Positions 12,350-54,649 of a stretch of DNA of 64,000 bases are shown here, piece by piece (within the stretch, counting starts at the first letter, position 1; every line of letters begins with the position of its first letter). Source of the stretch: Candidatus Omnitrophota bacterium (GTDB lineage Bacteria; Omnitrophota; Gorgyraeia; Gygaellales; Profunditerraquicolaceae). The stretch lies in the NCBI GenBank assembly GCA_963805065.1, contig CAWDSS010000010.1:856359-920358 (forward strand), read 5' to 3'. A model generated the notes under the pieces. The model made no database searches. It was not told the DNA's origin and saw only the letters and a list, made by a program, of their open reading frames with translations. The position numbers were made by a program, and so were the translations under genes.

Positions 12350-12381
12350 CAGAACCCAGAACCCAGAACCCAGAACCCATT
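12350..12381 (+). repeat. (CAGAACC)x4 + CATT heptamer array, in-frame in leuS
   Basis: Read directly. Encodes [11 protein letters not shown]. Identical 32-mer at 27524..27555. Confidence 0.95.
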
Positions 12382-26935: not shown

Positions 26936-28434
26936 AACCATTAAAGTTTTGCATATTATCGGCGATCATCCTGGCTTTGCCATATGCGAACGCAAAGTTA
27001 TGGATTTTTGCCTGGTTTGGTTTCCTGCCTTTATTGGCTGCTCTTGCGGGTAAATCTAAACCTAAGGCATTCTTATTATCTTATCTTACGGGAATTATTT
27101 TCTGGACGCTGGTTATTTACTGGTTAGTGCATGTTACATTGCCAGGCACAATTATTCTCATTTTATATTTGGCATTATATTTTGGGATATTTGGCGTTTT
27201 AGTTACGAGCATCGAGCATCGAGCATCGAGCATCCTATTTTTGATTCCAGCCATATGGGTTTTGCTGGAATACGCGCGTTCACATCTATTGACGGGTTTT
27301 CCCTGGGCGCTTTTAGCTTATTCCCAGTATGAGAATTTGCCCATTATACAGATCGCAGATATAACGGGAGCGTGGGGAGTGTCGTTTGTGGTGATGTTAG
27401 TAAATACAACCGTTTATGGGGTTCTAGGTTCTAGGTTCTCGGTTCTAGGAAAAATCAAGAAATGCATACCTGTTTTATTATGTATTATTGTTGTACTTGG
27501 TTATGGATATTATAAGCTTTTGCCAGAACCCAGAACCCAGAACCCAGAACCCATTCGTATATCCGTCATTCAAGGAAACATCCCCCAGGAATTAAAATGG
27601 GACTCTTCCGCCAGGCAATATATTTTAAGCCAATACGCAAGATTAACAAGACAGGCAGCCAAAGACCATCCCGGCCTGATTATTTGGCCGGAAGCAGCCA
27701 GCCCCGGGTTATTAGGAGAAGATGATGCAGTTTTTGAAGAAATTGATTCTTTGGCAAGGAATGTCAAGGTGCCGTTACTCGTCGGAACAGTAGCCAAAGA
27801 CGGCAAGGAATATTTTAACAGCGCCATATTGATTAATCCAAGCGGTGAAATTGCCGCCCGTTACAATAAATTACACCTTGTCCCCTTCGGAGAATACATA
27901 CCTTTAAAGAAATACCTTCCGTTTCTGGAGACTATAGTTCCAATAGGAGATATCACAAGGGGTAAGGAATATACAATATTCCAAAACTTAAAACCTAAAA
28001 CGCAAAACGCGGAAAAATTTGCGGTTTTAATTTGCTTTGAAGATTTATTCCCTGAGCTTTCACGTAAGTTTATTCAGGGGGGGGCTCAATTTTTAGTTAA
28101 TATAACTAATGATGCATGGTATAAGGAAACCTCAGCACCTTATCAACATTTACAGGCATCGGTATTCAGGGCTGTGGAAAATCGCGTATTCTTAGTGCGC
28201 GCTGCCAATACAGGCATTTCCGGGTTTATTGCGCCTAGCGGAAGAATCGTATCTATTGTGCACGGCAAAAGGGACAGAGAAATATTTACCGATGGATACG
28301 AAACCCTGGAGATTCCGCTTCCTATTCCTAAGTCAAGCCCAACTTTTTATAACCGCTGTGGTGATTATTTTGTGTTGATTTGCTTTTTTACTTTTACCTT
28401 TTTGCTTTTACCTTTTAACTTTTTAAAAGATTAA
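26920..28434 (+). CDS. lnt: apolipoprotein N-acyltransferase
   Basis: Multi-TM N-terminal half plus CN-hydrolase domain (WPE, LICFE catalytic Cys, NITNDAW). Confidence 0.85.
27207..27234 (+). repeat. (GAGCATC)x4 perfect heptamer array, in-frame in lnt
   Basis: Read directly. Encodes SIEHRASSI. Confidence 0.95.
27420..27449 (+). repeat. (GGTTCTA)x4 heptamer array (third unit GGTTCTC), in-frame in lnt
   Basis: Read directly. GGTTCTN is the reverse complement of NAGAACC. Encodes [10 protein letters not shown]. Confidence 0.95.
27524..27555 (+). repeat. (CAGAACC)x4 + CATT heptamer array, in-frame in lnt
   Basis: Identical 32-mer to leuS 12350..12381. Encodes [10 protein letters not shown]. Confidence 0.95.
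27982..28016 (+). repeat. degenerate A-rich heptamer array (CAAAACT TAAAACC TAAAACG CAAAACG CGGAAAA), in-frame in lnt
   Basis: Read directly. Homologous to leuS 13180..13211. Encodes [12 protein letters not shown]. Confidence 0.8.
28383..28425 (+). repeat. degenerate T-rich heptamer array (CTTTTAC CTTTTTG CTTTTAC CTTTTAA CTTTTTA) at the lnt 3' end
   Basis: Read directly. Its reverse complement is NNAAAAG, the same family as the A-rich arrays. Encodes [12 protein letters not shown]. Confidence 0.8.
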
Positions 28435-30545: not shown

Positions 30546-31928
30546 ATGCGCAAAATAATAATATTAAATTTGGCAATTTTAATAATCCTCGCTGCCATTC
30601 ATTGTTACGCCCAGGAATTGAAGGAAATTGAGCCGTTCAATAAAAATGACCGGGTTCTAATTTTAGCCCCGCACCCGGACGATGAGGCTATTGCCTGCGC
30701 AGGCGTTATTCAAGATGCAATTGCCGCAGGCGCCCATGTCCACATCGCTTTCCTGACAAACGGCGACCATAATGAAATCGCATTTATTGTTTTTGAAAAG
30801 AGGTTTACTCTAAGACAAGGCGAATTCATTCATATGGGTAAAGTGAGAAGGGTAGAATCAATAGAGGCGATGAAGCTGTTAGGATTGCATGAAAACGATC
30901 TGACCTTCCTGGGTTATCCTGATTTCGGGACGTTTGCGATTCTTTGCAACCACTGGCAAAATAGCCCGCCTTATAAGAGTATGATGACAAGGATTTCTGC
31001 CGTTCCTTACAAGGAAGACCTTTCCTTCGGTGCTGCCTACAAGGGAGAAAATATTCTTAAAGACATTGAGAGCGTGCTCTTGGATTATAAACCAAACAAA
31101 ATTTTTGTATCGCACCCCGCAGATGCAAATGTGGACCATCGGGCATTATATTTGTTTTTGCAGATTGCCCTGAGGGACTTAGATAGGCAACTGCCACAAC
31201 CCAAAATATACCCTTATCTTGTACATTGCCTGGGTTGGCCCTTGCCGCGCCACTATCATCCCCAGTTAAGCCTCCAGCCGCCCACCAGCTTTACGGACAA
31301 ACAGATCAATTGGTTAAAATTAGACTTAACTCCCGAACAAGTAAATAAAAAATACCAGGCTATTCTTTGTTATAAAAGCCAGACAGAGTCAAGCGCCTTT
31401 TATTTATTAGCATTTGCGCGTAAAGACGAGTTATTCGGAGACTATCCCGATATTGAACTTAACAAACAGGTTTCTGTAAGGGAGAAAGGGGTGTCGTTCT
31501 TCGGATTTTCAGATATGTACATGGATTCTGATACTGGGGTGCTGGGGGGTTTGGAGGGTATTGAAGATAAGGGCCGGGTTGATTATGCTGCAGTGGATAA
31601 TTATATTTTGATACGCATAAAGAAATCCAAAGAATTCACCCGTTTTTTTAATTTTCAGCTATATATCTTCGGCTATAATGGCAAGCAGCCGTTCTCATCA
31701 ATGCCCAAAATACGCCTGTTAGCCGAAAACCGCAAATTCCAGGTTTTTGATGGCAAAGAAATTATTAAACCGCAAGGTGTATCGATGGATATAAATTCTA
31801 ATGAATTGGTTTTAAAAATACCTCTTAGCGTGTTGGGAAATCCCAATTTCATTTTGACTTCCATAAAAAGTTACGGAGGAAAGCAACCCTTTGATTCAAG
31901 CGCCTTTAGAAAGATTTATTTAAAATGA
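30546..31928 (+). CDS. secreted PIG-L/LmbE-family deacetylase with extra C-terminal domain
   Basis: Signal peptide, then LILAPHPDDEAIACAG and a HxDH motif. Confidence 0.75.
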   Translation: MRKIIILNLAILIILAAIHCYAQELKEIEPFNKNDRVLILAPHPDDEAIACAGVIQDAIAAGAHVHIAFLTNGDHNEIAFIVFEKRFTLRQGEFIHMGKVRRVESIEAMKLLGLHENDLTFLGYPDFGTFAILCNHWQNSPPYKSMMTRISAVPYKEDLSFGAAYKGENILKDIESVLLDYKPNKIFVSHPADANVDHRALYLFLQIALRDLDRQLPQPKIYPYLVHCLGWPLPRHYHPQLSLQPPTSFTDKQINWLKLDLTPEQVNKKYQAILCYKSQTESSAFYLLAFARKDELFGDYPDIELNKQVSVREKGVSFFGFSDMYMDSDTGVLGGLEGIEDKGRVDYAAVDNYILIRIKKSKEFTRFFNFQLYIFGYNGKQPFSSMPKIRLLAENRKFQVFDGKEIIKPQGVSMDINSNELVLKIPLSVLGNPNFILTSIKSYGGKQPFDSSAFRKIYLK

Positions 31929-31942
31929 TCGAGGGAGGAGAA

Positions 31943-32440
31943 ATGTTAAACCTGGAATTAATCAAGATAAACAAGCCCGATGACGTAAATTTGATTTTAG
32001 GCCAAAGCCACTTTATAAAAACGGTAGAAGATTTGTATGAGGTTTTAGTAAATTGCGTCCCGGGCATAAAATTCGGCTTGGCATTTGTAGAATCCTCCGG
32101 AGCCTGCAAAATAAGAGCAGAAGGAAATGATCCTGAATTAAAGCAGCTGGCAAGTGATAATGCCTTAAAGATTGGCGCAGGGCATAGTTTTCTTGTTTTT
32201 ATGAGGGAGGCATATCCTATAAACGTACTGAATGCGATTAAAAATATACCGGAGGTCTGTACGATATATTGCGCTTCTGCAAACCCGGTTCAGGTTATTG
32301 TGGCGCAAGACCAAGATCAAGGCCGCGGCATTTTAGGGGTTATTGACGGACAAAAGCCCAAAGGTATGGAAACAGAAGCTGATATTGCCTGGCGCAAAGA
32401 ATTCCTGCGTAAAATCGGCTATAAGCTAAGCGAGCACTAA
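31943..32440 (+). CDS. adenosine-specific kinase-like protein (PF04008-type)
   Basis: GQSHFIKTVEDL, VPGIKFGLAF.ESSG, GAGHSF, PINVLN and CASANP blocks recalled from that family. SD GGAGGAG. Confidence 0.55.
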   Translation: MLNLELIKINKPDDVNLILGQSHFIKTVEDLYEVLVNCVPGIKFGLAFVESSGACKIRAEGNDPELKQLASDNALKIGAGHSFLVFMREAYPINVLNAIKNIPEVCTIYCASANPVQVIVAQDQDQGRGILGVIDGQKPKGMETEADIAWRKEFLRKIGYKLSEH

Positions 32441-32479
32441 ACTTACGGAGTGCACTAATCACGACGTAAGTTTAGTGCT
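32432..32479 (+). other. perfect 16-bp-arm hairpin (GAGCACTAAACTTACG/CGTAAGTTTAGTGCTC) overlapping the stop codon
   Basis: Read directly. The loop carries a second GCACTAA copy. No U-tract follows. Confidence 0.85.
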
Positions 32480-37160: not shown

Positions 37161-37219
37161 GCTCGGGATTCCCGCTTATGCGGGATTTCGCTAGATAAGA
37201 GCGTAAGGTGCTCAAAATT
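37161..37219 (+). repeat. ~60-nt conserved intergenic element, copy A (hairpin CGGGATTCCCGC-TTAT-GCGGGATTTCG plus promoter-like TAGATA-16-AAAATT)
   Basis: About 53/59 nt identical to 54462..54521. Confidence 0.9.
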
Positions 37220-37245: not shown

Positions 37246-37326
37246 ATGGGAAAAAGAAAGAGAAGAGGCAAGCTGAACTGGCGCTCTAAGAAAGCCAATA
37301 AGGGAAGAAGGCCTTGTCTGGGGTAA
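37246..37326 (+). CDS. 26-aa highly basic micro-protein MGKRKRRGKLNWRSKKANKGRRPCLG (possible bTHX-like ribosomal peptide)
   Basis: ATG..TAA ORF below the track cutoff, directly downstream of the promoter-like element. MGK..RRGK.xWR...RP resembles Thx as I recall it. Confidence 0.3.
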   Translation: MGKRKRRGKLNWRSKKANKGRRPCLG

Positions 37327-37380
37327 ATTCGCGCATATAACTTATGTCGTACTTCGTACTCCATAAGTTATGCGCTGATT
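37327..37380 (+). repeat. bulged hairpin family member H1 (ATTC-GCGC-A[TA]TAAC...GTTAT-GCGC-TGATT)
   Basis: 5+9 bp stem with a 2-nt bulge. The loop is the tandem heptamer TCGTACT TCGTACT. Confidence 0.85.
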
Positions 37381-37384
37381 GTAG

Positions 37385-37442
37385 ATACCCTCCGTTATGC
37401 ACTTCGCAGATTTCTTTGAAATCTGCTCGTAACGTCGGGTAT
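37385..37442 (+). repeat. long imperfect hairpin H2 with inner GCAGATTTC-TTT-GAAATCTGC stem, preceded by GTAG
   Basis: Outer ATACCC/GGGTAT and CGTTATG/CGTAACG pairings read directly. Confidence 0.8.
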
Positions 37443-37444
37443 TA

Positions 37445-37495
37445 ATTCGGCCAAATAATTTACGTTCACTTCGTTCCGTAAATTATGGCCTCATT
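37445..37495 (+). repeat. bulged hairpin family member H3 (ATTC-GGCC-A[AA]TAAT...ATTAT-GGCC-TCATT), abutting the SD of the next gene
   Basis: Same architecture as H1 and 54519..54570, with compensatory base-pair changes. Confidence 0.85.
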
Positions 37496-37509
37496 AAAAG
37501 GAGGTGGGT

Positions 37510-37764
37510 ATGCAGGAAACAGAGATAGGTACAATTACTCACTATTACGGCCACTTAAGCGTGGGTATAATCGAACTCTCAGGAGCACTCAAGGTAAACG
37601 AAGCCATACATATTAAGGGCCACTCCTCTGATTTTTCTCAACAGATAGACTCAATGCAGGTTGAGCATGCAAGCGTCTCTGAGGCAAAGGCAGGAGATGT
37701 TATCGGTGTAAAGCTGACTCAAAAGGCGCATCCTCACGATAAAGTCTATAAAGTTATCCCATAG
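37510..37764 (+). CDS. small EF-Tu domain-2-like beta-barrel protein
   Basis: SD AGGAGGTG. IGTITHYY..L.VGIIEL...L.V...IHI.G pattern resembling stand-alone GTP_EFTU_D2-like proteins. Confidence 0.45.
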   Translation: MQETEIGTITHYYGHLSVGIIELSGALKVNEAIHIKGHSSDFSQQIDSMQVEHASVSEAKAGDVIGVKLTQKAHPHDKVYKVIP

Positions 37765-52455: not shown

Positions 52456-54426
52456 ATGAAAGAAACAAATACCTGTCATTACTGCCATATGGTAGAGGAT
52501 TTTAAGAAGAGATTCTGGGTCTGTCTTGTCTTGACTATCCCTGTCCTAATTCTTTCACCCATGATTCAGGAATTCTTGCGCATCGGTTCATTATTGAGAT
52601 TCAGGGGGGATATGTATGTACTCTTTATCCTCTCCTCAATTATATTCTTTTACGGCGGCGTTCCGTTCTTTAAGGGACTTGCGGGAGAGCTGAAAGATAA
52701 ACAGCCGGGTATGATGACTTTAATTGCACTGGCTATAATCTTAGCTTACTTCTATAGCACAGCCGTCGTGTTTGGCCTGGGTGGAAAAATATTCTTTTGG
52801 GAACTGGTAACGCTTATAGATATTATGCTCTTAGGCCATTGGATAGAAATGAACTCTGTAATGGGCGCAGAAGGCGCATTGGAAGACTTAGCCAATCTGC
52901 TTCCTGCGCAGGCGCACAGGGTAGGCCCGGATGGCAGCATAAAAGATACTCCACTTGAGGAGCTAAATCCCCATGATATTGTTCTTATTAAGCCGGGAGA
53001 AAAAATACCTGCGGATGGGGTGGTGATTAAGGGTGAAACATCGGTGAATGAAGCAATGCTTACAGGCGAATCCCTTCCTGTATTAAAGAAAATAGGAAAC
53101 CAGGTAATAGGCGGTTCCATTAATTCAGAAGGCTCCATTACTGTAAAGATCAATAAGACAAAGCAGGACTTATTTATTTCCCGGGTTATCGAATTGGTCA
53201 GTGAGGCAAAGCAAAGTAAATCACACACGCAGGATTTAGCTAACCGTGCGGCTTTATGGCTTACAGTTGTTGCCCTTGTTGCCGGAGCGATTACGCTTTT
53301 TATGTGGCTACTGCCGATGAACAAGGATTTTGCTTTTGCCTTGGAAAGGGCAGTAACTGTGATGGTAATTACCTGCCCTCATGCCTTGGGGTTGGCAATA
53401 CCGTTAGTAGTCGCCGTCTCTACAGCCATTGCTGCAAAGAACGGGTTGTTAATTAGAAACCGGGTTGCTTTTGAAAAAGCCAGGAATATTCAGGCAGTCA
53501 TCTTCGATAAAACAGGCACCCTTACCGAAGGCAAATTCGCAGTAACCAGCGTAATTCCTTTGTCAAAAGACACAGATGAAAACGAGATCCTGAAATTAGC
53601 AGCTTCTCTGGAATCGTATTCTGAACATTCTATCGCGAAAGCAATAGTATCTTCTTCTAAGGAAATTATACCTGTGGATGGTTTTAGGGCCATTCCGGGC
53701 GAGGGAATAGAAGGGCGCATTTACGGTCGGCAAGCCAAGGTTGTTAGCCGCAGCTATTTAAACCAGAAAAATATTTCAGTCAGCGAAGATTTAGCCAAGA
53801 AAATATCTTCTCAAGGCAATACATCTGTTTTCCTGCTTCTGGACGGCGAGCCCAAAGGCGCTATTACTCTATCCGACATCATCAGGCCGGAGTCGCAAAA
53901 AGCAATCACGCTGCTTAAGAAGATGGGGATTAAATGCATGATGCTTACGGGAGACAATAAACAGGTTGCAATGCAGGTTGCTTCTCAACTTGGATTGGAT
54001 GAATATTTTGCAGAGGTATTGCCCGGGGAAAAGGTAGCAAAAATTAAGCAAGTCCAGCAAAGAGGCTTGGTTGTGGCGATGGTGGGAGACGGCATAAATG
54101 ATGCGCCTGCGTTAGCCCAGGCTGATGTGGGAATTGCCATCGGCGCAGGGACTGACGTGGCTGTTAATACAGCTGATATAATTCTTGTAAAGAATAATCC
54201 GCTGGACGCAGTTAAGATAATCGGGCTTGCGAAAGCCACTTACCGAAAGATGGTGGAAAATCTATTATGGGCAACCGGCTACAATGCATTCGCTATCCCG
54301 CTTGCAGCAGGCGTGCTTTATAAGCCGGGAATAATTTTAAGCCCTGCCCTGGGAGCATTATTAATGTCTTTAAGCACCATAATTGTTGCCATAAACGCTA
54401 GATTCTTGCGGTTATCCCTCGCGTAA
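52456..54426 (+). CDS. heavy-metal P1B-type ATPase, CPH (CopB/P1B-3-like) subtype, no HMA domain
   Basis: TGES, CPH in TM4 (ITCPHALGLA), DKTGTLT, GDGINDAP, MSLST in the last TM. N-terminal CHYCH. Confidence 0.85.
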   Translation: MKETNTCHYCHMVEDFKKRFWVCLVLTIPVLILSPMIQEFLRIGSLLRFRGDMYVLFILSSIIFFYGGVPFFKGLAGELKDKQPGMMTLIALAIILAYFYSTAVVFGLGGKIFFWELVTLIDIMLLGHWIEMNSVMGAEGALEDLANLLPAQAHRVGPDGSIKDTPLEELNPHDIVLIKPGEKIPADGVVIKGETSVNEAMLTGESLPVLKKIGNQVIGGSINSEGSITVKINKTKQDLFISRVIELVSEAKQSKSHTQDLANRAALWLTVVALVAGAITLFMWLLPMNKDFAFALERAVTVMVITCPHALGLAIPLVVAVSTAIAAKNGLLIRNRVAFEKARNIQAVIFDKTGTLTEGKFAVTSVIPLSKDTDENEILKLAASLESYSEHSIAKAIVSSSKEIIPVDGFRAIPGEGIEGRIYGRQAKVVSRSYLNQKNISVSEDLAKKISSQGNTSVFLLLDGEPKGAITLSDIIRPESQKAITLLKKMGIKCMMLTGDNKQVAMQVASQLGLDEYFAEVLPGEKVAKIKQVQQRGLVVAMVGDGINDAPALAQADVGIAIGAGTDVAVNTADIILVKNNPLDAVKIIGLAKATYRKMVENLLWATGYNAFAIPLAAGVLYKPGIILSPALGALLMSLSTIIVAINARFLRLSLA

Positions 54427-54429
54427 TCA

Positions 54430-54458
54430 TCCCGAAAATCTCTTTGAGATTTCCGGGA
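54430..54458 (+). repeat. hairpin TCCCGAAAATCTC-TTTG-AGATTTCCGGGA directly after the ATPase stop
   Basis: Same CTTTGA loop as the inner H2 hairpin (37406..37426), with a different covarying stem. Confidence 0.8.
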
Positions 54459-54461
54459 TAC

Positions 54462-54521
54462 GCTCGGGATTCCCGCTTACGCGGGATTTCGCTAGACAAA
54501 AGCTTGAGGTGCTCAATAATT
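54462..54521 (+). repeat. ~60-nt conserved intergenic element, copy B (hairpin plus promoter-like TAGACA-16-AATAAT)
   Basis: About 53/59 nt identical to 37161..37219. Confidence 0.9.
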
Positions 54522-54570
54522 CGCGCAAATAACCCAGCACATAAATTATGTGCTGGGTTATGCGCTCATT
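54519..54570 (+). repeat. bulged hairpin family member (ATTC-GCGC-A[AA]TAAC CCAGCACAT...ATGTGCTGG GTTAT-GCGC-TCATT), abutting an SD
   Basis: Same conserved base and 2-nt bulge as 37327..37380 and 37445..37495; the upper stem is unrelated. Confidence 0.85.
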
Positions 54571-54586
54571 TAAGGAGGTGATATTG

Positions 54587-54649
54587 ATGAGTTGCGGAAG
54601 TTGCGGGCCGAAGAAGCCAAAGAAAAAAGCCAAGAAGAAAAAGAAATAA
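54587..54649 (+). CDS. 20-aa micro-protein MSCGSCGPKKPKKKAKKKKK
   Basis: Near-perfect SD AAGGAGGTG 7 nt upstream. Flanked by hairpins on both sides. Below the track cutoff. Confidence 0.4.
   Translation: MSCGSCGPKKPKKKAKKKKK

Follow-up and report, generated by a model that had tools for sequence, protein, structure and literature searches.

A family of bulged hairpin repeats at gene boundaries in Omnitrophota genomes

A 64-kb stretch of the genome of a Candidatus Omnitrophota bacterium (contig CAWDSS010000010.1 of assembly GCA_963805065.1; hereafter the window), which is compact, has a G+C content of 41% and carries nearly all of its genes on the + strand, contains several bulged hairpins that belong to a large family of repeats placed at gene boundaries. 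The base pairing of these hairpins is under selection, the family has spread by copying, and the occupancy of a given site is not conserved. We lean, with modest confidence, towards viewing the family as a dispersed repeat like the repetitive extragenic palindromes (REPs) and bacterial interspersed mosaic elements (BIMEs), or like the REPINs (inverted REP doublets), spread by copying, selected as a folded single DNA strand by a putative enzyme, and co-transcribed as stem-loops at the ends of cistrons. Omnitrophota, uncultured bacteria that are mostly ultra-small, have compact genomes and gene-expression signals that are little known. The Omnitrophota and REP literature that was searched makes no mention of this repeat, and the family is apparently undescribed so far.

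In the window, the hairpins of the family and the G+C-rich hairpins beside them are the following.

37326..37380, + strand: H1, a bulged hairpin of type A; covariance-model score 70.1 bits
37383..37444, + strand: H2, a GC-hairpin module (ATACCC...GGGTAT) with inverted repeats; fold -26.2 kcal/mol, z -6.5
37442..37497 with foot (core 37444-37495), + strand: H3, a type-A hairpin; 71.7 bits
54429..54459, + strand: GC-hairpin module with a CTTTGA loop (ATCCCGAAAATCTC-TTT-GAGATTTCCGGGAT), 3 nt past the stop codon of a P-type ATPase gene
54518..54570, + strand: third type-A copy, with an atypical upper stem (CCAGCACATAA...); 59.8 bits
32432..32478, - strand: degenerate inverted copy of the family; 24.3 bits, E 0.0013

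The three type-A copies, which the original prediction had recognized from the letters alone as members of one family, lie where it placed them and share the frame AATTCG-SS-CA-NA-TAAY...RTTATG-SS-CT-S-ATT. Each half of this pattern has exactly three matches in the window, against chance expectations of 0.9 and 0.5 with at most one mismatch, and H1, H3 and the 54518 copy fold as drawn, with z scores against shuffled sequences of -5.5, -5.0 and -9.3, respectively. The first A of H1 is the final base of the TAA stop codon of a 26-aa open reading frame (ORF), and its outer 2-bp foot is unpaired. H3 possesses a completely paired 5-bp foot, with the Shine-Dalgarno (SD) sequence GGAGGTG (37500-37506) 2 nt beyond it and the ATG of an 84-aa gene at position 37510. 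Likewise, the SD sequence GGAGGTG (54574-54580) of a 20-codon ORF (54587-54649) begins 3 nt beyond the 54518 copy, so that the reported abutment of both hairpins on GGAGGTG is confirmed. The 3' end of H2 corresponds to the GGG-T-A-T 5' flank of the family, and an inner hairpin with a CTTTGA loop occupies 37406-37426; this hairpin and the one at 54429-54459, reported earlier as a second type, both exist and recur in other genomes. Two smaller claims were mistaken. The "tandem heptamer" of the H1 loop is merely an apical palindrome, GTAC-TTC-GTAC, and the GTAG taken as a REP-like sign precedes only H2 of the window, the 5' flank of the family being C-GGG-A-T-N. Overlooked were a 55-nt repeat, here called D3, lying 5' of both loci, and the inverted copy at 32432-32478, which lacks the bulge and whose foot overlaps the stop codon of the ORF at 31925-32440.

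The family extends far beyond the window. An exact-pattern scan of one genome per species (185,579 species) with AATTCGNNCANNTAAY-N(8-38)-RTTATGNNCTNATT, which placed no constraint on the two inner pairs of the lower stem, found at least 120 loci where about 2 were expected by chance. Among the matches listed, 118 loci come from about 83 Omnitrophota-type assemblies, placing the family in at least 83 genomes, and two loci (Lachnospiraceae and Photorhabdus) are unpaired chance matches; a scan of viral contigs gave one match. The assemblies are labelled Omnitrophota or, for some third-party-annotated metagenome-assembled genomes, Planctomycetia, Planctomycetales or just "bacterium". Typical copies also sit on a 2-kb contig binned as Methanobacteriota (L037) and a 5-kb contig binned as Proteobacteria (L116), both of which are probably mis-binned; the L116 copy has an identical counterpart, flanks included, in an Omnitrophota contig (L089). 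A covariance model built on an alignment of 87 sequences and run over 0.67 Mb of the scan loci, a kind of search that had been proposed at the outset, retrieved about 170 copies, some 65 of them beyond the pattern matches. Copy density is about one per 10-16 kb, from which a genome of 1.2-2 Mb would be estimated to hold roughly 100-200 copies, and just 3 of 153 copies scored lie inside ORFs, which were called mechanically. The family is thus much larger than three hairpins could indicate, with further members in many genomes, and its copies are clearly not fragments of one recent local duplication. A search of the window against Rfam 15, at gathering and at permissive thresholds, found two tRNAs and no family for the hairpins, over which the best sub-threshold matches were microRNA or small-RNA noise.

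The consensus unit is an imperfect palindrome of 55-60 nt. Above a foot of 5 bp (T-N-A-A-T / A-T-T-N'-A) lies a TC/TC internal loop, found in 144 of 150 copies, followed by a lower stem of 5 bp (G-NN-C-A / T-G-NN-C), a 2-nt bulge N-A in the 5' arm, an upper stem of 9 bp (TAAYTTAYG / CRTAARTTA), a second internal loop that is again usually TC/TC, and a variable apical stem-loop, the apex ranging from 8 to 38 nt. H1 and H3 both possess the family-wide TTAYG...CRTAA, contrary to the earlier view that the upper stems are unrelated in sequence; that description holds for the 54518 copy alone, whose upper stem is private to it. At one locus (L184), a copy lying about 310-210 nt before the start of the 84-aa gene has an additional small hairpin (GACGCCCTATGGGCTA) inserted where the 2-nt bulge would be, which suggests that the bulge is a tolerated branch point.

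Pairing within this unit is maintained while the sequence varies. The free NN/NN dinucleotides of the lower stem are complementary in 119 of 128 copies and use 11 Watson-Crick combinations, and the Y/R pair of the upper stem is C-G in 95 copies, T-A in 30 and C-A in 3 (128 copies). In the 87-sequence alignment, 94.8% of cells are paired, as compared to 82.0% in shuffles, none of 500 reaching the observed value, and 26-42% in slid controls. RNAalifold adds to the stem two pairs that the search pattern did not contain, and one of them covaries freely (UA 37, AU 25, CG 13). The covariance-model hits add further covarying pairs: 17 copies have changed A:T to G:C and 14 have changed T:A to C:G, and two positions show C:G replaced by T:A or G:C. 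The seed alignment is biased by the search pattern, a bias that affects neither the foot pair nor the covariance-model hits. The compensatory changes first noticed in the window, GCGC/GCGC to GGCC/GGCC and AAC/GTT to AAT/ATT, are real, with covariation in 87 and in 150 homologues, and the proposal of selection on structure is strongly supported. Not all conservation follows from pairing, as the TAA of the 3' arm is conserved in at least 98% of copies, beyond what pairing needs.

The type-A hairpin is accompanied by partner modules that recur as well. The conserved 5' flank, C-GGG-A-T-N, is the 3' arm of an adjoining G+C-rich hairpin, and one class of these GC hairpins holds an inner AAATTTC-TTYG-GAAATTT hairpin, which is the CTTTGA-loop type; with a looser pattern, 17 copies of this type were found across genomes, against about 2 in shuffles. 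H2 and the hairpin at 54429-54459 belong to this module, which recurs upstream of type-A copies elsewhere. D3 is present in the window in two copies, whose hairpin consensus is CCCGC-TTAY-GCGGG.

37161..37215, + strand: D3 module, copy 1 (CCCGC-TTAT-GCGGG hairpin plus ATTTCGCTA...GTGCTCAA); a 55-nt direct repeat, 91% identical to copy 2
54462..54516, + strand: D3 module, copy 2, directly abutting the 54518 hairpin

Copy 2 contains promoter-like hexamers (TAGACA-16-AATAAT), and D3 abuts type-A hairpins at three other loci (L018, L041 and L083). Farther upstream there is often an inverted copy of the family, giving composites of inverted copy, GC hairpin and direct copy, and many of the copies found with the covariance model are inverted pairs that flank a GC hairpin. 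One subfamily of inverted copies, type B, is distinguished by G:C at the second foot position, a T.T pair below the bulge and a flipped G:C. The result is a set of mosaic clusters, with alternating orientation and conserved linkers, of which the B-GC hairpin-A and D3-A composites are examples. At the rpoB-rpoC junction of one genome (L096, 2019-2173), a complete B-GC-A composite of about 150 nt takes up exactly the space from the rpoB stop codon to the rpoC ATG. Long-range pairing of A with B, in the manner of a REPIN or of an rRNA-processing stem, was considered and rejected, the partners differing at variable positions and each hairpin covarying internally.

The turnover of these blocks can be followed at orthologous sites. 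The 84-aa gene of the window has orthologues, 64-83% identical, at 80 metagenome loci, and a family copy is nearby at about 12 of them, in varying positions; most of these copies lie 3-4 nt before the ATG of the 26-aa ORF, and a single one (L144) directly precedes the 84-aa gene. Spacers before the 26-aa ORF measure 1-2 nt at about 16 loci and 64-248 nt at others, and those before the 84-aa gene range from 15-20 nt up to about 580 nt. Removal of 37326-37495 from the window leaves TAA-AAGGAGG-N5-ATG, which is the architecture of the empty sites; the blocks of the window are inserts in an otherwise minimal junction. A pair of loci that are 83-87% identical (L020 and L073) differ by an extra block of about 100 nt in L073, consisting of a GC hairpin and a type-A hairpin. 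After that block (L073, 5566-5671) comes AAAGAGTAAAAG, which duplicates exactly a 12-mer of the upstream gene lying just ahead of its final sense codon (GAA) and stop codon; the 12-mer is single in L020, where 11 of 12 positions match, and its repetition could reflect microhomology-mediated copying or be part of a mobile unit.

Copying is also evident within genomes. Pairs of copies at least 90% similar make up 7.1% of comparisons within genomes and 0.39% of those between genomes. In one assembly four copies share the hairpin and GAACATTAAAGGAGG before unrelated genes, and at another locus (L019, 6139-6446) a hairpin with its upstream GC hairpin forms three tandem units with a period of about 127 nt that are 98-100% identical. 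Median similarity, on the other hand, is nearly equal within and between genomes (0.68 and 0.69), indicating that the family is old and diverse in every genome.

The CTCATT end of the unit adjoins a start codon or SD sequence, and in inverted copies that end overlaps the upstream stop codon or follows the 3' end of a tRNA. In 34 copies a start codon on the same strand lies 1-4 nt past CTCATT, leaving no room for an SD sequence, and the proteins that begin there, among them L11, S10, GlmS (MCGIIG), DnaJ, AccC, LeuA and RpoC, have genuine N-termini; in about 50 others the start is 7-23 nt away and AAGGAGG follows the foot directly. The downstream genes preceded by a family hairpin number well over 50 and are unrelated. 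In 28 of the 40 copies that face the 3' end of a gene on the opposite strand, the foot itself supplies the stop codon, TAA or TGA, and four copies (L065, L070, L112 and L115) lie 1-2 nt past the 3' ends of opposite-strand tRNAs that have no encoded CCA. Copies also bracket genes in the arrangement A> ... <B, and the genes so bracketed are housekeeping genes. A role of the hairpin as a replacement for the SD sequence was entertained and dropped: about 21 of 65 called genes in the window have a strong SD sequence within 18 nt of the candidate start, many starts follow A/T-rich sequence, and SD-independent initiation seems common in this organism, so that SD-less starts beside hairpins are not special.

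Whether the folded form that is selected is RNA or DNA is addressed by the mismatches that the helix tolerates. Across 19 well-aligned pairs in 150 copies, G.U (18 cells) and A.C (22 cells) are equally rare, and among the 102 copies on a transcribed strand the counts are 13 and 17, which rejects an RNA-like ratio of 3:1 (p = 2e-4). At two pairs that switch frequently from C:G to T:A, there are 3 U.G cells in about 290. Moreover, both orientations are used, and the internal loops of the RNA would be UC/UC in one and GA/GA in the other. The mismatch spectrum and the use of both orientations favour constraint on folded DNA, or on competence for copying, rather than on a typical RNA helix. Of the properties expected of a cis-regulatory RNA, helix covariation is present, and a greater tolerance of G.U than of A.C and a stable link to a gene family or orthologous site are absent.

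These observations fit a REP/BIME-like repeat best among the four explanations offered with the original prediction; an operator and a recombination site do not survive, and stem-loops at mRNA 5' ends would explain at most part of the family, as 40 of 143 copies are inverted toward stop codons and the mismatch spectrum is not RNA-like. The units are short, imperfect palindromes, high in copy number and intergenic (about 170 copies in 0.67 Mb, with 3 of 153 in ORFs). The proposed process is one in which blocks, namely type-A hairpins, inverted stop-specific type-B hairpins, GC-rich hairpins including the CTTTGA-loop type, and D3, would come and go in the interval from the stop codon of a gene to the SD sequence or start codon of the gene that follows. 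Selection would act on a single DNA strand in its folded form, which an enzyme specific for hairpins would read much as REP-associated tyrosine transposases (RAYTs) read REPs, a suggestion made because wobble pairs are no better tolerated than A.C and because both orientations are used. Blocks that are transcribed through, as at the rpoB-rpoC junction, would also fold into stem-loops at both ends, 5' and 3', of the cistrons beside them, which they may insulate or stabilize.

Several observations weigh against this reading, in part or in whole. A tblastn search for a RAYT, as had been advised, used E. coli RayT against 1.09 Mb of loci and found no match (best E 0.66; a single query of low sensitivity), and clustering of 783 neighbouring ORFs revealed no recurrent transposase-like family. 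The foot has no GTAG/CGTC tag, C-GGG-A-T-N standing in that place, and there is no target-site duplication, the flanking N:N' bases being complementary rather than direct repeats; the 12-nt direct repeat of the one filled site is not adjacent on both sides. For these reasons, the family is not to be filed as a canonical REP. Its core sequence is conserved over about 83 species-level genomes among the matches listed, far more broadly than the REP families in the literature searched. The orientation of copies is not random: a called ORF lies on the CTCATT side in 143 of the 153 copies scored, and among these 103 face a start codon and 40 the 3' end of an opposite-strand gene. Type B occurs only at stops (10 at stops and 0 at starts, versus 22 and 91 for type A; Fisher p = 4e-7). 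Starts of essential genes (rplK, rpsJ, glmS, dnaJ, accC, leuA, rpoC) lie 1-4 nt from the foot, and 4 of 5 divergent genomes, in which ThrS is only 47-56% identical to that of the reference locus (L002), have a copy at the infC/rpmI junction. The orientation bias, the stop-specific subfamily, the flush essential starts and the recurrent sites suggest a host role, probably at the level of RNA, on top of mobility or instead of it. In part, the flush junctions can be accounted for by insertion into ancestral spacers that were very short (1-20 nt).

If that host role were primary, the hairpins would be RNA signals that punctuate genes, with type A as the 5' and type B as the 3' stem-loop of transcription units, and with a helix-specific factor (an RNase III-like enzyme, a dedicated nuclease or a binding protein) cutting or protecting the mRNA ends, giving mRNAs with short leaders or leaderless-like mRNAs and stable 3' ends, and spread would be a by-product. 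We regard this, the main rival reading, as a tentative possibility. It accounts directly for the 34 feet at 1-4 nt from an ATG and the roughly 50 that stand directly before AAGGAGG, for the inverted copies that overlap stop codons (28 of 40) or follow tRNA 3' ends by 1-2 nt, for the bracketing of genes by A and B, for the stop-specific subfamily (p = 4e-7) and for the repeated occupation of the infC/rpmI junction; the rpoB-rpoC composite is necessarily transcribed through, and the conserved helix from foot to upper loop, about 21 bp, would be of the size of an RNase III substrate. Yet G.U is not preferred even on the transcribed strand, sequence is kept inside helices, as proteins that read RNA helices rarely need, and RNA from inverted copies has GA/GA rather than UC/UC loops, with the bulge on the opposite strand. 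Orthologous sites can do without a copy, insertion into 1-20-nt spacers would produce flush junctions, and SD-less starts are common anyway, about two-thirds of the window genes being without a strong SD sequence. A more ambitious version, which we consider improbable, makes A and B the recognition sites of an Omnitrophota-wide machinery for transcript punctuation, in which a factor dedicated to these hairpins would cut RNAs, or cap them, at the feet. Cistrons would then have leaders of 1-4 nt or of an SD sequence only and hairpin-protected 3' ends, an arrangement that would be a bacterial counterpart of mitochondrial tRNA punctuation, and copying at the DNA level would install the signal at new gene boundaries. 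Speculatively, one candidate for the factor would be the near-invariant, arginine/lysine-rich 26-aa peptide encoded at this locus.

Other readings fare worse. That the hairpins are parts of promoter or terminator cassettes, with -10-like TAAGTT/TAAATT in the 3' arm or the GC hairpin and TTAATT as a terminator, is unlikely. The family heads many units that start operons in model bacteria (rpsJ, rpsP, rplU, tuf), D3 has promoter-like hexamers and the 3'-arm TAA is at least 98% conserved beyond pairing need, but a promoter does not need base-pair covariation, an apex of 8-38 nt makes a fixed -35 impossible, T-runs are absent, a composite lies inside the rpoBC operon, and inverted copies would fire antisense into genes. 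Promoter-like sites in the region of the locus near 37 kb are no commoner than in shuffles, and scans for sigma-70 promoters and terminators did no better than shuffles, save for one promoter-like site in D3. Intrinsic termination was also rejected directly, at least five T in the 10 nt after the foot being found in only 5 of 124 copies on the sense strand and 3 of 126 on the opposite strand, with the composite lying within rpoBC. The gene-specific 5'-untranslated-region operator of the original prediction, through which an RNA-binding protein would control the 84-aa and 20-aa ORFs, has in its favour that two of the three window copies adjoin the SD sequences of small ORFs. It is very improbable, given hairpins before well over 50 unrelated genes, copies near only about 12 of 80 orthologous loci, in variable positions, of which most precede the 26-aa ORF and one (L144) directly precedes the 84-aa gene, and many spacers of 1-2 nt or of an SD sequence only. 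The last of the earlier candidates, integron attC or other site-specific recombination sites, is scarcely credible, even though the hairpins resemble attC in length, are bulged and imperfectly palindromic, and have AAC/GTT in the stem. Instead of the R'' (RYYYAAC) and R' (GTTRRRY) cores, their feet read TNAATTCG and CTCATTNA, AAC/GTT lies inside the stem rather than at the foot, several hairpins follow one another with no ORFs between them, and there are no cassette arrays, the neighbours being core and housekeeping genes, including those at the rpoB-rpoC junction; intI was not searched for genome-wide. A kink-turn, a boxA/boxB nut-like site and a self-cleaving ribozyme were discarded as well, their geometry being unfit and Rfam silent.

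The hairpins of the window stand beside three small genes.

37246..37326, + strand: conserved 26-aa basic ORF (MGKRKRRGKLNWRSKKANKGRRPCLG), whose stop codon H1 abuts
37510..37764, + strand: 84-aa gene with 299 homologues and weak similarity to EF-Tu domain 2 (27.6 bits, below the Pfam cutoff of 30.3)
54587-54649, + strand: 20-codon ORF (MSCGSCGPKKPKKKAKKKKK) with a CxxC motif, a poly-Lys tail and a strong SD sequence, just downstream of the P-type ATPase gene (52456-54426)

The 26-aa ORF is near-invariant in at least 50 of the 80 orthologous loci, which come from different species, and is more strongly conserved than the adjacent 84-aa gene. In other species this ORF has a type-A hairpin 3-4 nt before its ATG instead of at its stop. 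It matched nothing in Pfam or NCBIfam and showed no BLAST similarity to a Thx sequence. It is probably a real micro-protein, with putative binding to the ribosome or RNA. Elsewhere in the window, an identical 32-nt stretch of CAGAACC heptamers (CAGAACCCAGAACCCAGAACCCAGAACCCATT) occurs at 12350-12381 and at 27524-27555, 15 kb apart.

A repeat that takes up exactly the space from a stop codon to the next start codon, at rpoB/rpoC and ribosomal-protein genes among others, offers a ready marker for the binning and annotation of the phylum Omnitrophota, and a test case of a REP-like element that keeps its sequence across deep divergence with no visible transposase. It points to a candidate new hairpin-reading enzyme, acting on single-stranded DNA or on mRNA ends, and it cautions that covariation alone does not prove RNA function.

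Known systems resemble the family in different respects. The intercistronic RNase III sites of phage T7 and the 5' stabilizers of the ompA type are stem-loops with internal loops that lie between cistrons or at mRNA 5' ends, beside ribosome-binding sites; those signals are G.U-tolerant RNAs of single genomes, whereas the Omnitrophota hairpins have a mismatch spectrum that is not RNA-like and are commonly inverted. The ends of IS200/IS605 elements and palindrome-associated transposable elements carry different subterminal bulged hairpins at their two ends, lack terminal inverted repeats and target-site duplications, and are recognized as folded single-stranded DNA. Their left-end and right-end hairpins are on the same strand, however, whereas A and B are mutually inverted, and no TnpA was found in the loci sampled. 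Correia elements of Neisseria (CREE/NEMIS) are small, non-autonomous, gene-adjacent repeats that are co-transcribed and whose hairpins affect mRNA processing by RNase III and can bring expression signals. They share with the present family small size, lack of autonomy, position beside genes and co-transcription, but they have 26-bp terminal inverted repeats and duplicate a TA target; here each end is a self-folding hairpin with no target-site duplication, and the combination of terminal inverted repeats and target-site duplication that marks miniature inverted-repeat transposable elements is missing.

The closest likenesses are to REPINs and to REP/BIME elements. Like the REPINs of Pseudomonas, the composites join two inverted palindromes through a spacer and are inherited vertically, long-lived and accompanied by a minority of recent copies; they differ in that arms A and B are not copies of each other and each covaries alone, in that the spacer is a conserved GC hairpin, and in that many copies are solitary. 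Like enterobacterial REP/BIME elements, the family consists of short, intergenic, imperfect palindromes, estimated at 100 or more copies per genome, in alternating clusters with linkers, which are co-transcribed, often lie a few nucleotides from stop codons and vary in occupancy between relatives. As compared to the REP/BIME elements associated with RAYTs (TnpA-REP), no RAYT was found in the sample and C-GGG-A-T-N replaces GTAG/CGTC. The Omnitrophota unit is longer (55-60 versus 20-40 nt) and has two conserved TC/TC loops and a fixed 2-nt bulge, its core is common to about 83 species-level genomes among the matches listed and not just to a genus or family, and one of its ends is flush with start codons or SD sites.

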